This document shows, piece after piece, positions 9,820 to 24,077 of a stretch of 64,000 bases of DNA. Where the stretch lies: assembly GCA_964633905.1 (NCBI GenBank), contig CAZWIT010000001.1:329-64328 (forward strand), read 5' to 3'. The translations under genes and the position numbers were made by a program. Under the pieces are notes generated by a model that had not been told where the DNA came from, did not search any database, and saw nothing but the letters and a program-made list of their open reading frames with translations. The DNA comes from an uncultured Gammaproteobacteria bacterium (GTDB lineage Bacteria > Patescibacteriota > Patescibacteriia > UBA1558 > GWA2-36-10). Each line of letters begins with the position of its first letter. The first letter of the stretch is position 1.

Positions 9820-10956
9820 ATGAATTTATTTTCAAGTAGTAATAGTTATTTAGGTATTGATATTGGCACTTCTAGTATCAAGATGGTTGAATTAGAAAAC
9901 TTTAAAGGCCAAGCTAAACTTAAGACTTATGGTTATGCTGATGTTTCTACTAATATTTTGAGAGGCACAGTTGAAAAAAATAATCAGGCTATTGCCGATT
10001 ATATTAATTTAATTGCTAGTAAATCCAAGATAACTAGTCGCCAAGTGGTAGCAGCTTTGCCTACTTTTTCAGTTTTTAATTTTATTATTACCTTACCTCC
10101 TATGCCAAAAAAAGATTTGGCAGCGGCTATTAAATGGGAAGCTAAAAAATTTATCCCTGTGCCTATTGAAGAAATGATTTTGGATTGGAAAATTTTAAAT
10201 AAAAAGAAAGTTAAGGGCAATAGTTTATTTTCTAAAAAAACAGAGGGCAAAGTAGAAACTAAAGACAATTCCGTTAATGCTAATAATATTAGCAATCCTG
10301 CTTCTGCCCATGTTGATGATAAAAATTATAGAATACTACTGACAGCTGCTCCTAAAAATTTAGTAGCTCGCTATATTGATATTTTTAAAAAAGCTAAATT
10401 AAATTTGTTGAGTTTAGAAACGGAAGCTTTTGCTTTATCACGCTCTTTGATTGGTAATGATTTATCAACAATTATGGTTGTGGATATGGGCTCTAGTAAT
10501 ACGGACATCTGTATCATTGAAGAAGGGGTGCCAGTTTTAAATAGAGGTATTGACACTGGTGGTGAATCTTTGACTAAAGGTATTATGAATAGCTTAAATA
10601 TTAATCAAGAACGAGCTGAACAATTTAAGCGCGATTTTGGTTTATCAGCTGGCGCCAATCAAAATATTCCGGATGTGATTGAAAAAAGTTTAGCGGCTAT
10701 TATTAATGAGATTAAATATATTTTTGAAATTTATCAAAGGCAAGGAGCCAGCACTATTGATAAGATTATTTTAACAGGGGGTAGTGCTTGGTTACCTAAA
10801 TTACCAGAATATTTATCTAACTTATTGAAATTGCCAGTAATCATTGGTGATCCTTGGGATCGTATTGTTTATCCTTTAGATTTAAAACCAGTTTTATATG
10901 AGATTGGTCCAAGTATGGCTGTTAGTATTGGTTTAGCCATGCGTGATATACAATAA
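9820..10956 (+). CDS. pilM: Type IV pilus assembly protein PilM (actin-like ATPase fold)
   Basis: N-terminal LGIDIGTSSIKMVEL, which is the PilM/FtsA-like phosphate-1 motif. Length 378 aa. It is the first gene of a pilMNO-pilB block. Confidence 0.85.
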   Translation: MNLFSSSNSYLGIDIGTSSIKMVELENFKGQAKLKTYGYADVSTNILRGTVEKNNQAIADYINLIASKSKITSRQVVAALPTFSVFNFIITLPPMPKKDLAAAIKWEAKKFIPVPIEEMILDWKILNKKKVKGNSLFSKKTEGKVETKDNSVNANNISNPASAHVDDKNYRILLTAAPKNLVARYIDIFKKAKLNLLSLETEAFALSRSLIGNDLSTIMVVDMGSSNTDICIIEEGVPVLNRGIDTGGESLTKGIMNSLNINQERAEQFKRDFGLSAGANQNIPDVIEKSLAAIINEIKYIFEIYQRQGASTIDKIILTGGSAWLPKLPEYLSNLLKLPVIIGDPWDRIVYPLDLKPVLYEIGPSMAVSIGLAMRDIQ

Positions 10957-10984
10957 GCTAGCTATATTTTAATAAAAATAAAAA

Positions 10985-12688
10985 ATGGCCGAAGATAAAA
11001 ATATTAATTTAATGCCAGAGGATCTGCGTAAAAAGGAAGATTTGATTAAAAAATCAAATTGGTCTTTTACGCCAGATTTGTCATCTCCAGTTAATGTAAA
11101 AAATAAGGGCTTACATACTAATAAACCAAGTGGCTCTAACCCTTCTCTTTGGTCTAAGTTATTTTCTTCTTTAAAGCCAGTACCAAAAGTAAAACCAGCG
11201 CCAATTTTAACTCCTGTTAATAAAGCAAATACAAAAGTAGAACCGATTCCTACGCCAGTTATTAAATCTCCTATTTTTATTGCTCCAGATATTAAGGCCA
11301 TGGAAGCAAAAGCAATGCCGCCCAAGCTTGATAAAGTAGAGGAGCATATTCAAGATTTTGTGGCTGATAAAAAAATTAAAGAACCTAAATTAAAAAATAG
11401 CGGTCCTTCTTTTTGGTCTAAGTTATTTTCTTCTTCAAAGTCAGTGCCAAAAGTAAAGCCTATGCCGAATTTAACTCCGGTAAGTTCAGCCAAACCAAAA
11501 ATTGAACCAAAAACTGAGCCTTTGGTAATTCCGACTATTAAGTCTCCTATTTATACGGCGCCAAGTATGAGTCCAATCGCTATTAAGGCAGATAATAACG
11601 TAAAGACAGGCGAGCATATTCAAGATTTTGTGGCTGATAAAAAAATTAAAGAAGCTAAATTAAAAAATAGCGGTCCTTCTTGGTGGCAACGTTTATTATC
11701 TTTTTTTAAGCCTAAGGCCCGCACGCCTAAGCCAGCTAAACCAAGTGCTTCAGTTTTAACGCAGGCCATAAAACGTAATGGTTATAAGGTGGAGACTGCT
11801 AATTTAGAAATGCATCAAGCTACCAAACAAAATGCAGTTATGCCGAAACAGGATCTTAAAGATTTAAATCAAAAAGTTGAAGATATTTTAGAAACAAAAC
11901 CAGTTGTTGAAAAAGTACCTAAAACTGCAGAGGCAGCGGATATTGTTTTGCCTACAGCAGTAGTAAAACCAGAAATAATTAAAACAGAGCCAGTAGCATC
12001 AGATTTTGATATTCCTAGTATGCCAACTGCAGAAAAGCTTTCCAAATCACCAGCAGTTGCAGCCACCCCAGTTGAAAATAATAAATTTCATCAACCTGAT
12101 CTTTTGCATAAAAATGGCTTGATGGGTCAAATTGGTAATGTTGATTTAATACCGCAGGCCGCTAAACTGCGTAGTTGGCGTCAGATTAATGGCTTGCTGT
12201 CTTTAGCTAGTGTTGCGTCATTGCTTATTATCGGAGTTTTTTATGGGGCCTTATTATTGCAAGAGCAGGCCATCATCAAAGAGCAAAAGCTACAACAAAC
12301 AGCCATGTTGGAGCTTGAAAAAAAAGTTTTGAATTTTAATGATTTAAATAAGAATATTAAAGTTTTGGGTGAAGAAATTAATTTAGTGCAAGAAGCATTA
12401 AATAAACACATCTACTGGACAAAGTTTTTTACTCTTTTAGAAAAATATACCTTGCCAGAAGTTTATTATAGCGGTCTTTCGGCTGGTAATAATGGAGCCT
12501 TGACCTTGGGTGCTACTACTGATAGTTATGAGGCTGTAGCTAGGCAGTTAAAGGTTTTACAGGGAGAAGAGGCTAAGGAATTTATCACAGCCGTTAGTAT
12601 TAGTGGTGCTGTAAAAGATGGTAATAAGGTTGGTTTTTCTGTTAATTTAGTATTGAACCCGAATTTATTTTATTATGATAAACAATAG
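10985..12688 (+). CDS. pilN: PilN-like protein with an extended repeat-containing N-terminal region
   Basis: The C-terminal third has a single TM helix (LLSLASVASLLIIGVFYGALLL) followed by a coiled-coil/PilN-like region. Position immediately after pilM supports the call. The N-terminal roughly 300 aa is Pro/Lys-rich with 90-aa tandem repeats. Confidence 0.6.
   Translation: MAEDKNINLMPEDLRKKEDLIKKSNWSFTPDLSSPVNVKNKGLHTNKPSGSNPSLWSKLFSSLKPVPKVKPAPILTPVNKANTKVEPIPTPVIKSPIFIAPDIKAMEAKAMPPKLDKVEEHIQDFVADKKIKEPKLKNSGPSFWSKLFSSSKSVPKVKPMPNLTPVSSAKPKIEPKTEPLVIPTIKSPIYTAPSMSPIAIKADNNVKTGEHIQDFVADKKIKEAKLKNSGPSWWQRLLSFFKPKARTPKPAKPSASVLTQAIKRNGYKVETANLEMHQATKQNAVMPKQDLKDLNQKVEDILETKPVVEKVPKTAEAADIVLPTAVVKPEIIKTEPVASDFDIPSMPTAEKLSKSPAVAATPVENNKFHQPDLLHKNGLMGQIGNVDLIPQAAKLRSWRQINGLLSLASVASLLIIGVFYGALLLQEQAIIKEQKLQQTAMLELEKKVLNFNDLNKNIKVLGEEINLVQEALNKHIYWTKFFTLLEKYTLPEVYYSGLSAGNNGALTLGATTDSYEAVARQLKVLQGEEAKEFITAVSISGAVKDGNKVGFSVNLVLNPNLFYYDKQ
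11141..11760 (+). repeat. Tandem direct repeat, about 270-nt period, 2 full copies plus a partial third, inside the pilN-like gene
   Basis: A 69-nt block gagcatattcaagattttgtggctgataaaaaaattaaagaa(c/g)ctaaattaaaaaatagcggtccttct recurs at 11341 and 11611 with one mismatch. Flanking segments (ccttctYtttggtctaagttattttcttct...) also recur. This encodes the repeated peptide GEHIQDFVADKKIKExKLKNSGPSxW...KVKP. Confidence 0.85.
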
Positions 12689-12693
12689 TTTGT

Positions 12694-22603: not shown

Positions 22604-22604
22604 T

Positions 22605-23231
22605 ATGTTTAGTGGTTTGGATAGACAAAAAAATAAGGGCTTTACTTTGGTGGAAATTTTAGTTGCCATTGCTGTTTTTGCAATGCTTTCGACTATTTTT
22701 ACAATGATTTATGTACTCATTTCTCAAAATCAACATCGAGCTAAAGCATCGCAATTGCTTTTAAATAATTCACTTTACGCTTTAGAGATAATAGCTCAAG
22801 ATCTAAAAAATAATGAGTTAGATTACAATTTTATTTTGCCTGATAATGATCCGAATCGGCCTGACTGCAGCTCTTTAAACTGCATGGTCTTTAAAAGAAT
22901 AGATGGTTCTTTGGCAATTTATTCAAATCCGGATTGGGCAAATGATTCTCTTTTTTATGGTGTCTATACTTGTGATCCTTATCCAGATATTTGTATTGTA
23001 GAAAATATAAATTTAGTAGAAATTTTATCACCTCGCTTAAATCATGTTAAGGTTGATTATTTGCATTTTTTTGTAGAGCCAGTAACAGCTGATCCTTATT
23101 TAAGTCAGACAGTCAATATTAGCCCTAGGGTAACTATTGTTTTAAAGACTAGCTACTATAGTCAAGTTGAATCAGAACAAATTAGTTATACTTTACAAAC
23201 TACAGTTTCTTCTCGTATTTATAAACGTTAA
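22605..23231 (+). CDS. PilW-like minor pilin
   Basis: Leader KNKG|FTLVEILVAIAVFAMLS. Start placed at ATG 22605, directly after the upstream stop. Confidence 0.6.
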   Translation: MFSGLDRQKNKGFTLVEILVAIAVFAMLSTIFTMIYVLISQNQHRAKASQLLLNNSLYALEIIAQDLKNNELDYNFILPDNDPNRPDCSSLNCMVFKRIDGSLAIYSNPDWANDSLFYGVYTCDPYPDICIVENINLVEILSPRLNHVKVDYLHFFVEPVTADPYLSQTVNISPRVTIVLKTSYYSQVESEQISYTLQTTVSSRIYKR

Positions 23232-23234
23232 TTT

Positions 23235-24077
23235 ATGCTTAGGCGCAAAAATAAAAATTTAAATTCACAGGGCATTACATTGGTAGTAGCTTTGCTTATT
23301 TTATCTTTGGCAGCCTCGACTGTCATGTTAGTCACTGGTTTAATTGCCTTGCAGATTAAAAGTTCTTTAAATACCGTAAATTCCATAACAGCTTATTATG
23401 CTGGGGAAAGTGGCATTGAGCAGGGTTTGTATTATATTAAATATTCTCGTGAAAATAGCGATTTTGTATCTAATTTTGATTATTTAGAAAATGCTAGTTT
23501 TGACGCCGTTAATTTAGATAATGCTAATGCTGGGCAATATAGCATACTAGTTGCTTCTACTACTTTGACAAGGTTTTGGGATATCTATAATTTAAGTACT
23601 TCTTCGCCTCAGCATATTGATATTGTTGATCCGTCGGGCGGGGTGGAATCAATTACCAATGGTCCTAGTGGCTCATTTTCTATTAATTGGTCTATTGATA
23701 GCTGTTTTCCAACGGGAGCTTCTAGTCGTCTAGAAACCACTATTAATTCTTTTGAGTCTAATTTTGCTAATCCACAAACTAGAACGCTACTTGATATTTG
23801 TAATTGCGCTTACGGAAGTGATAATTGTGAAAATATTAGCTATGCGCTAGATAGCAATCGTTATTATCGCATTGGTTTTCGCTCATTAGATACCAATATA
23901 AAGAATTTAAAATTTTCTTTAGACTCAGGCATTAAATCGCAAGCCTCTATAGAAGTAGAAGGGCTTTATCGTAATTCACGTTATCGTGTTAAAGCGCAAC
24001 TTCCAGCCTTGAGTCCGGCATCAGATATTTTTAGTTATGTTATATTTTCTGAAGAAGATTTGACTAAGGGCTATTGA
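23235..24077 (+). CDS. PilX-like minor pilin
   Basis: N-terminal [18 protein letters not shown] hydrophobic segment resembling the PilX N-terminal domain. It is the last gene of the minor-pilin set. Confidence 0.5.

Follow-up and report, generated by a model that had tools for sequence, protein, structure and literature searches.

Type IV pili (T4P) are the one conspicuous surface machine of the Candidate Phyla Radiation (CPR), and in cultivated Saccharibacteria they are essential, mediating host binding and twitching. In the saccharibacterium TM7x, the only CPR organism for which we found genetics, the PilT-containing T4P locus is essential and is implicated in twitching, another pilus serves in host binding, and those T4P mutants that could be made showed wild-type competence (PMC11623550). 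CPR genome surveys score PilT as present and infer retractile, DNA-importing pili from it, and two such papers label the gene PilT, retraction ATPase or twitching motility protein (PMC11809585, PMC8672522). Here we describe a T4P locus at positions 9820-24077 of a 64-kb stretch of contig CAZWIT010000001.1 (the whole stretch is hereafter called the window), in which the PilT homologue has its catalytic residues replaced and is preceded by a gene for a CheY-like receiver (REC). We consider it probable that the locus encodes a monoderm T4a-like pilus of a kind standard in its clade, with PilB as the sole active motor of the locus and with the PilT homologue and REC as a non-catalytic module that would regulate the pilus or permit its retraction.

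TM7x T4P-1 resembles the window locus in being a monoderm, T4a-like CPR machine with PilB, PilT, PilC, PilM, PilN, PilO, PilD, about five pilins and no secretin, and its last minor pilins likewise lack the standard PilD signal (PMC11623550). However, the Walker A and B boxes of both PilB and PilT are reported to be well conserved in TM7x (PMC11623550), whereas those of PilT are replaced in the window, so that Saccharibacteria do not seem to share the degeneracy. Also not described for TM7x are a REC gene between pilB and pilT, a long linker in PilN, an uncleaved pilin-like protein (m142) and a pair of upstream genes, u318 and u1135. The type IVa pili (T4aP) of diderm Pseudomonas and Myxococcus share with the window PilM, PilN with its INLLP motif, PilO, PilB, PilC, PilD, a short-leader major pilin and four core minor pilins; the window differs in having no PilP, PilQ or TsaP, a degenerate PilT, a PilN linker of 130-380 amino acids (aa) and a single cluster in place of scattered genes. 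The ComG system of Firmicutes is similar in being monoderm, with no secretin, a possible role in DNA uptake and no dedicated active retraction motor, but it has neither PilM, PilN and PilO nor a PilT homologue, and ComGA is without the long N-terminal region.

Open reading frames (ORFs) of the window were searched with Pfam and NCBIfam models, and NCBIfam scores were judged against their curated cutoffs. The motor and platform genes were identified as follows.

13734..15476, + strand: pilB, extension ATPase (T2SSE, E=1e-127, and MshEN)
15495..15866, + strand: REC, stand-alone CheY-like receiver of 123 aa (PF00072, E=9e-26)
15869..16933, + strand: pilT homologue, below called the degenerate PilT (TIGR01420, 292 bits, under the cutoff of 319)
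16937..18151, + strand: pilC, platform protein (two PF00482 T2SSF domains, E=1e-60; GspF and PilC NCBIfam models match)

PilB matched TIGR02538 over its full length, at 516 bits under the equivalog cutoff of 676, and the Walker A, Asp box, Walker B, His box and tetracysteine motifs of a T4aP extension ATPase are all intact in its translation (GPTGSGKSTT, TLEDPVEY, DPDIIMVGEVRD, TGHSVLTTLHT and CSKC...CVNC). PilC has the two T2SSF domains of a T4aP platform. An alignment of the degenerate PilT with Aquifex PilT (2EWV, E=6e-65) spans the whole protein, and the catalytic motifs of the two proteins compare as follows.

Walker A: GPYGSGRTT in the degenerate PilT, GPTGSGKST in Aquifex PilT
Asp box: TIEEPIEY in the degenerate PilT, TIEDPIEY in Aquifex PilT
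Walker B: DAVLLSSLHE in the degenerate PilT, DVIFVGEMRD in Aquifex PilT
His box: SGKLVLVIMDA in the degenerate PilT, TGHLVFGTLHT in Aquifex PilT

The Walker A lysine is replaced by arginine, the Walker B glutamate by serine, and the His-box histidines by lysine and aspartate. The first two positions correspond to K136 and E204 of Vibrio cholerae PilT, mutation of which is the standard ATPase-defective allele, K136 being described as an "invariantly conserved" lysine (PMC6821130). From these four replacements we infer that the degenerate PilT cannot hydrolyse ATP; it may still bind nucleotide through the arginine-bearing P-loop. As far as motifs can be read from sequence, the locus does not encode the catalytically active PilT of T4aP, and the "pseudo-pilT" named in a first-pass annotation of the window holds as a pseudo-ATPase, its catalytic residues being replaced as judged against Aquifex PilT.

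In the 120 closest homologues (46-99% identity), the Walker A residue was always arginine and the His box never retained a histidine; most lacked the Walker B glutamate, and in most the second acidic residue of the Asp box had become lysine, arginine or glutamine. Their organism-level names were Patescibacteria, Parcubacteria, Komeilibacteria, Nomurabacteria or plain "bacterium". Among the best 150 representatives of 50%-identity clusters, about 80 departed variously from the canonical signature, while 62 read KDEHH. Across the family, the surroundings of the P-loop and the N-terminal domain are well conserved, those of Walker B poorly. Comparison with a near-identical strain (locus L001) gave a synonymous divergence (dS) of about 0.57 and a nonsynonymous divergence (dN) of 0.0055 for the degenerate PilT, and the resulting dN/dS of 0.010 was the lowest of eight genes (PilB, 0.014; PilC, 0.018; REC, 0.041; PilN, 0.18). 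Members of this family are deposited as "TadA" or as generic ATPases, since they fall below the cutoff of the NCBI PilT model (292 bits, with 319 required). The L001 contig itself (CAZHLU010000030.1, 11 kb; its PilT is 99% identical to that of the window) was deposited as "uncultured Gammaproteobacteria bacterium" and is almost certainly a mis-binned Patescibacteria contig. Tandem PilT-PilT fusions of 700-1000 aa (P0161, P0163, P0168-P0173 and others) were also among the best matches, several of them combining one canonical with one degenerate P-loop.

A contig scan with one protein yielded three close relatives, and synteny was taken from contigs encoding homologues. The ten related loci comprise L002 and L008-L015, together with L001 from the same species; their PilT proteins share 46-76% identity with that of the window, apart from the 99% of L001. 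The same scan returned Pelagibacteraceae PilT matches at about 30% identity (L004-L006) and a Staskawiczbacteria PilB (L007). The shared order begins with one to three large secreted proteins and continues with PilM, PilN, PilO, a small protein, PilB, REC, the degenerate PilT and PilC; downstream come one to three pilins, an m142-like protein (most loci), PilD, four minor pilins and LigA, followed in most loci by GatC and GatA. We defined the run from a u1135-like protein and PilM to LigA as the conserved cluster, and the window matches L002 and L008-L015 in it, each gene having its counterpart; the u318/u1135 pair (5233-9620) belongs to the conserved neighbourhood. The component set had been called atypical at first, but the same set and order recur in ten related Patescibacteria loci, so that it is the norm of the clade and atypical only by comparison with the Pseudomonas and Neisseria models. 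The locus is a genuine and complete T4a-like cluster, an ordinary instance of an arrangement that is conserved in Patescibacteria. ORFs or domains of GIY-YIG endonucleases were observed among the pilin genes of L012 (12404-12694) and L015 (14273-14971 and 17116-17928), one of those in L015 being fused to an N_methyl pilin.

In all ten loci the REC gene is placed between pilB and the degenerate pilT, 0-126 nucleotides (nt) upstream of the latter, and a REC gene also follows pilB in the Staskawiczbacteria contig. The residues equivalent to D12, D13, D57, T87 and K109 of CheY, which mark a receiver, are kept in all ten loci. Single-domain receivers are genetically linked to T4P motors in other bacteria, such as PilG and PilH in Pseudomonas and those of the PixG/PatA type in cyanobacteria. 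REC resembles them in this linkage but is located between two motor genes, with no Chp or Pix genes and no kinase nearby. The literature search, whose coverage was partial and is no proof of novelty, found no paper on a degenerate or pseudo-ATPase PilT in CPR; as far as we could determine, the pairing of a receiver with a family-wide, strongly selected pseudo-ATPase PilT has not been described before.

The run of ORFs at 9820-24077 is unbroken, with all pilus genes on the plus strand. Every gene named there by the first-pass annotation was found, by ORF, Pfam and NCBIfam analyses, where it had been placed and on that strand, and the gene list is accepted as correct because these searches agree with the genes called separately on L016, a Logan contig from this organism, which carries the same gene set with shorter pilin starts. 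As on L016, starts downstream of the longest-ORF starts were adopted for several pilin ORFs. Minus-strand ORFs inside the locus were rejected as genes, all of them being short and lying wholly within plus-strand genes with strong family matches. The claim of a complete pilus with no secretin also held, the window encoding a full T4P machine with no secretin in 64 kb. No Secretin, PilP or TsaP domain was present in any window ORF of at least 120 aa, and gene calls in the ten related loci, extending 10 kb to each side, included no secretin, PilP or TsaP. A secretin is neither needed nor present, as expected for a single-membrane cell. The suggested CPR-type host agrees with the names of homologues and the titles of the related loci, which are CPR/Patescibacteria, and with the GC content of the window (34% overall; 33-37% along its length).

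The first-pass annotation had left open a competence pilus, and this class was not upheld: PilM, PilN and PilO, a long PilB and a PilT-family protein make the machine T4a-like and not ComG-like. A ComG-type system consists of the ComGA, ComGB and ComGC-GG set with no PilM, PilN or PilO and no PilT homologue; PilM, PilN, PilO and a PilT homologue are all present here. The ComGA model matched the core only (250 bits; cutoff, 300), ComGB scored 138 against 240, and ComGC-GF were all under their cutoffs. Nor does the locus have the composition of a type II secretion system (GspD and GspC/GspL/GspM with pseudopilins), since GspD, GspC and GspL are absent from the window; PilM and PilN stand in for GspL, a PilT-family gene is present, and the GspE and GspF scores are under their cutoffs.

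The upstream part of the locus encodes the alignment complex and a small anchored protein.

9820..10956, + strand: pilM, actin-like cytoplasmic alignment protein (PF11104, E=2e-45; TIGR01175, 180.7 bits, cutoff 133)
10985..12688, + strand: pilN variant of 567 aa, with an N-terminal PilM-binding motif, a Lys/Pro-rich cytoplasmic linker of about 380 aa, a transmembrane helix and an extracytoplasmic domain
12694..13380, + strand: pilO, 228 aa (a profile built from nine family members matches Myxococcus xanthus PilO, 3JC8_O, E=8.3e-6)
13386..13727, + strand: a113, a membrane-anchored protein of 113 aa (transmembrane helix; GNPxPF motif conserved at the C-terminal end)

The PilM-PilN-PilO subcomplex of T4aP is represented in full. 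The N-terminal INL(M/L)PEDLR of PilN, INLMPEDLR in the window copy, is the PilM-docking peptide; besides the window it was found in eight of the ten relatives (L001, L002 and L008-L013), while residues 1-18 of the copies in L014 and L015 did not show it. The single transmembrane helix of the window copy begins at residue 407 and is followed by a conserved C-terminal domain of about 160 aa, the profile of which found nothing significant among PDB sequences. The Pfam PilN model matched five of ten family members weakly (best E=0.0011); the window copy, which had no Pfam match in the initial scan, matched Amuc_1101 at E=0.012. The unusual feature is the linker between motif and helix, which is Lys/Pro/Ser-rich and 130-380 residues long across the family. 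In the window it is lengthened by a tandem duplication of about 270 nt at 11141-11710 (about 2.3 copies, 80-87% identical), which is of recent origin and has added to the three copies of a GPSFWSKL-like motif; this motif also occurs in several relatives. Since PilN of the Staskawiczbacteria locus is only 196 aa long, the long linker is specific to a sub-clade. PilO as a single sequence matched GspM weakly (E=3e-4) and had no Pfam match in the initial scan. A protein of 109-140 aa occupies the position of a113 in all related loci; a113 matched nothing in Pfam, NCBIfam or PDB, either as a single sequence or as a family profile, and a search with concatenated m142 and a113 returned only m142 relatives, with no a113 homologue outside the loci in hand.

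The downstream part encodes the pilins and their peptidase (a slash marks the cleavage site).

18322..18804, + strand: pilinA (N_methyl), leader MKKLKG/FTLIE, 8 Cys in the mature protein
18914..19420, + strand: pilinB, paralogue of pilinA (N_methyl), leader MKKNKG/FTLIE, 8 Cys, placed by a three-pilin alignment
19457..19864, + strand: pilinC, shorter paralogue (N_methyl), leader MKLNNKAG/FSLIE, 135 aa on L016
19867..20295, + strand: m142, pilin-shaped membrane protein of 142 aa with no prepilin cleavage site and no hit in family models
20382..21164, + strand: pilD, prepilin peptidase with N-terminal domain (A24_N_bact PF06750, E=7e-30; Peptidase_A24 PF01478, E=4e-13)
21169..21921, + strand: GspH/ComGD-like minor pilin with a C-terminal Cys-rich DUF4215 repeat
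21938..22603, + strand: PilV/GspI-like minor pilin with leader (TIGR02523, E=3e-10, under cutoff)
22605..23231, + strand: GspJ/ComGF-like minor pilin (family match and leader)
23235..24077, + strand: PilX/GspK-like minor pilin with no Glu5 (weak matches to PilX_N, E=0.0017, and to GspK, E=0.014)

As in T4aP, six proteins carry a class III leader, 6-12 residues in length, that precedes F-(T/S)-(L/I)-(I/V)-E, and PilD is an A24 peptidase with an N-terminal domain. The best models for the four minor pilins were GspH/ComGD, PilV/GspI, GspJ/ComGF and PilX/GspK, all under curated cutoffs, and by this sequence typing they are assigned to the usual tip-priming quartet. Prepilin leaders had been ascribed to all four: three carry a canonical G/FT(L/I)xE, but the fourth has QG/ITLVV and no Glu5. 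Homologues of the fourth in L008, L009, L012 and L013 carry a precomputed PilX_N match. The AlphaFold2 model of m142 (mean predicted local distance difference test score [pLDDT] 90.6) has an N-terminal helix of 52 residues packed on a beta-sheet. Pilins and pseudopilins held the top Foldseek ranks (gonococcal pilin, PpdD, EpsG and Clostridioides difficile PilW), at a non-significant E >0.5, and the family profile matched geopilin at E=0.0023; the assignment of m142 as a pilin accordingly depends on the model architecture and the profile match, not on the Foldseek statistics. The Gly(-1)/Glu(+5) processing site is absent from every member of the m142 family alignment, and m142 is for this reason probably an uncleaved, membrane-retained pilin-like subunit.

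By homology, PilD cleaves the six prepilins with short class III leaders, PilM, PilN and PilO form a membrane alignment complex in which the INLMP peptide of PilN docks PilM, and PilC is the platform at which hexameric PilB, the only competent motor in the locus, drives polymerisation. The GspH/I/J/K-type minor pilins would prime a fibre with pilinA as its major subunit and with no outer-membrane conduit. The degenerate PilT may be a structural hexamer with no catalytic function, a rival of PilB for the PilC/PilM base that either stops extension or permits motor-independent disassembly of the pilus, and phosphorylated REC may set which of the two is engaged. Retraction, if any, would be motor-independent or would use an ATPase encoded elsewhere; as hypotheses only, the PilN linker could be a docking scaffold and m142 a base or terminator subunit. 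A non-catalytic role is proposed because purifying selection in the locus is strongest on the degenerate PilT and because a phosphorylatable REC is always found ahead of it. There is precedent for a structural role, since the K136A/E204A form of V. cholerae PilT, serving as an adaptor of PilU, continues to allow retraction, which is not supported when pilT is deleted (PMC6821130). In V. cholerae and Acinetobacter baylyi the ATPase-dead PilT hexamer still works at the pilus base (PMC6821130), as we propose here, but that case is a laboratory mutant that needs active PilU. The loss described here occurs in nature across a whole family, and the locus has no PilU-like gene.

Several points weigh against this reading. 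No histidine kinase gene occurs in the window, contact between REC and the degenerate PilT is suggested by gene adjacency only, and the promoters and terminators described below are consensus-based predictions. Residual or unconventional activity is possible in some lineages and is conceivable because a P-loop with arginine in place of lysine can bind nucleotide and because some family members keep the Walker B glutamate or the Walker A lysine. A second canonical PilT or PilU elsewhere in the genome could make the degenerate PilT an adaptor instead of a motor-free clutch.

It seems unlikely that this is an ordinary extending and retracting T4a pilus, in which the degenerate PilT is a working ATPase that uses the P-loop arginine and another acidic base and REC acts in the manner of PilG and PilH. 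The protein is indeed a full-length member of the PilT family by TIGR01420 and PDB matches, its P-loop region, QREVG motif and N-terminal Arg-rich strand are still conserved, an acidic residue three positions past the lost Walker B glutamate is conserved as well, and published CPR annotations treat the gene as a retraction ATPase (PMC11809585, PMC8672522). However, four catalytic-motif residues are replaced together in the window protein, with the second Asp-box acidic residue in addition in most homologues, no part of the protein is less conserved than the Walker B region, and mutation of K136 or E204 is the standard means of making PilT ATPase-defective (PMC6821130).

Another view, which we also regard as improbable, is that the locus encodes a dedicated ComG-equivalent pseudopilus that works with ComEC and ComF in taking up DNA as a nucleotide source, and not an adhesive or motility pilus. 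Weak or motor-free retraction suffices for ComG-type pili, the window contains a ComF-family gene and a deoxynucleoside monophosphate (dNMP)-salvage cluster, and in most of the related loci the cluster runs directly into ligA. A CPR study, too, reads such genes as DNA-uptake machinery (PMC11809585). The architecture is nevertheless that of a T4a system, with PilM, PilN and PilO, a long PilB with an N-terminal domain, a PilT-family protein and Com models under their cutoffs, and three Cys-rich pilin paralogues with a Cys-rich secreted protein upstream suggest a role in surface interaction. The comF gene is on the other strand and 9 kb away, and the viable TM7x pilus mutants remained competent (PMC11623550). 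Decay of the cluster into a non-functional remnant, with the degenerate PilT as a pseudogene in the making, might be read from the loss of its catalytic residues and from the long, recently duplicated low-complexity insertion in PilN, but it is refuted in practice by intact ORFs throughout, by dN/dS values of 0.010-0.18 in all eight genes, lowest for the degenerate PilT itself, and by order and content that are kept across loci of no more than 46-64% identity.

The favoured reading, a T4a-like pilus driven by PilB with a non-catalytic PilT-REC module, can be extended to a bolder proposal that we make only tentatively and hold to be doubtful: in a large part of the Patescibacteria an ancient, strongly conserved pseudo-ATPase would have taken the place of the PilT retraction motor. 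Gated by a phosphorylatable CheY-like REC, it would bring about retraction or arrest of extension by displacing PilB and not by hydrolysing ATP, as a motor-free clutch under signal control, perhaps with the PilN linker as its docking scaffold. If the degenerate PilT does not hydrolyse ATP, the inferences of twitching, forceful retraction and DNA reeling in these organisms need revising, and the clade would be a natural experiment on how pili are retracted or shut down where no retraction motor is available, a question that T4P research has still to settle. The conserved pair of REC and the degenerate PilT offers a concrete, testable regulatory module. A role of the pilus in host attachment and/or DNA capture is plausible from lineage, and the sequence content does not discriminate between the two.

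The locus had initially been described as a single operon, which was not confirmed: the predicted signals divide 9820-24077 into about five transcription units, with a conserved terminator after pilinA. They are listed here with the box before u318.

5168-5176, + strand: extended -10 box TGTTATAAT before u318
9622..9651, + strand: promoter-like site before pilM (TTGGCT, 18 nt, TGtTATAAT)
18155..18183, + strand: promoter-like site of pilinA (TTGTCT, 17 nt, TGcTATAAT)
18831..18856, + strand: strong intrinsic terminator after pilinA (11-bp GC-rich stem, then a T-run)
18868..18881, + strand: -10-like box AAATTTGCTATACT before pilinB
19436..19449, + strand: -10-like box AAATTTGCTATAAT, 7 nt before the pilinC ATG
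20367..20375, + strand: -10-like box TGGTATAAT, 6 nt before the pilD ATG

Between 5000 and 21000, six intergenic gaps contain a TGnTATAAT box (those before u318, pilM, pilinA, pilinB, pilinC and pilD), and a relaxed form of the pattern matched at only five further sites in the roughly twenty-fold larger coding sequence. The upstream regions of u318 and pilM have the 15-mer AAATATGTTATAATT in common, and the 14-mer AAATTTGCTATA(A/C)T is common to all three pilin genes. In eight of the nine related loci folded, the first pilin gene likewise has an equivalent hairpin and T-run behind it. The Shine-Dalgarno sequence GGAGAGGAGGTG occurs in the locus only at pilinA (region 18296-18321), the other genes being AT-rich upstream. 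With its own promoter, its own terminator and the only Shine-Dalgarno sequence of the locus, pilinA is the probable major pilin and an expression unit in its own right, as far as these predicted signals go. Because their ATG codons lie 6-7 nt past a TGnTATAAT box, pilinC (19441-19459) and pilD (20367-20384) are candidates for leaderless mRNAs. From pilM to pilC and from pilD to the last minor pilin the genes are tightly packed (gaps of 1-28 nt), and these two blocks, the second probably extending into ligA, look like true operons from their spacing. The predicted 5' leader of pilinA, about 140 nt long (18184-18330, +), folds moderately better than shuffled sequences (z=-2.0) and has no Rfam match. 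Nothing else inside the pilus locus matched Rfam either, and the window has only one tmRNA and one tRNA.

The genes that flank the locus are the following.

5233..6189, + strand: u318, secreted Gly-rich protein with a signal-peptide-like N-terminus, a candidate accessory gene outside the finding proper
6213..9620, + strand: u1135, large secreted Cys-rich protein, a candidate pilus-associated surface protein, also outside the finding proper
24083..26089, + strand: ligA, NAD-dependent DNA ligase with the full ligase domain set, not a pilus part

u318 has no Pfam or NCBIfam match, and its homologues lie upstream of pilM in L002, L008 and L010. u1135 consists of a signal anchor, an extremely Cys-rich middle of about 700 aa and a conserved C-terminal domain; every related locus that reaches far enough has its C-terminal 450 aa or so conserved immediately ahead of pilM, and all 40 of 40 homologues are Patescibacteria hypothetical proteins. 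AlphaFold2 modelled its last 240 or so residues as beta-rich with pLDDT >85, and the C-terminal domain had no significant match in PDB, Pfam or sequence searches. ligA directly follows the last minor pilin gene, adjoining or overlapping it, in the window and in L002, L008, L010-L013 and L015, and it is probably co-transcribed with the minor pilin genes; the linkage reflects either a conserved co-transcription of a replication and repair gene with pilus genes or mere frozen gene order. Downstream of ligA in the window are u195, gatC, gatA, a DsbA-like gene (4.5 kb downstream of the pilus locus) and lgt.

A comFC gene had been placed at the other end of the window. A ComF-like gene does exist, but it lies at the near end of the window, at 337-1002 on the minus strand, and scored 87 bits against a cutoff of 233. 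It is 9 kb from the locus, on the opposite strand and beyond clpB, htpX-like and lemA genes, and falls outside the cluster. Beyond the left end of the window, no record of the ComF product turned up, and the ClpB contig stops at comF. ComEC, ComEA and DprA were not found among window ORFs of at least 120 aa. Four more ORFs of 210-525 aa (33554-35131, -; 38236-38868, +; 52971-54098, -; 58219-59085, +) have no significant Pfam family. The tmRNA gene (Rfam, 110 bits) adjoins smpB at 32640-33475 (-), and the sole tRNA of the window is at 30283-30356. The dNMP-salvage cluster at 40702-44687 (+) encodes a HIT protein, a dCMP deaminase, a P-loop kinase, a ThyX-like protein, a dUTPase and a thymidylate kinase, and the ThyX-like protein is unusually long at 450 aa.

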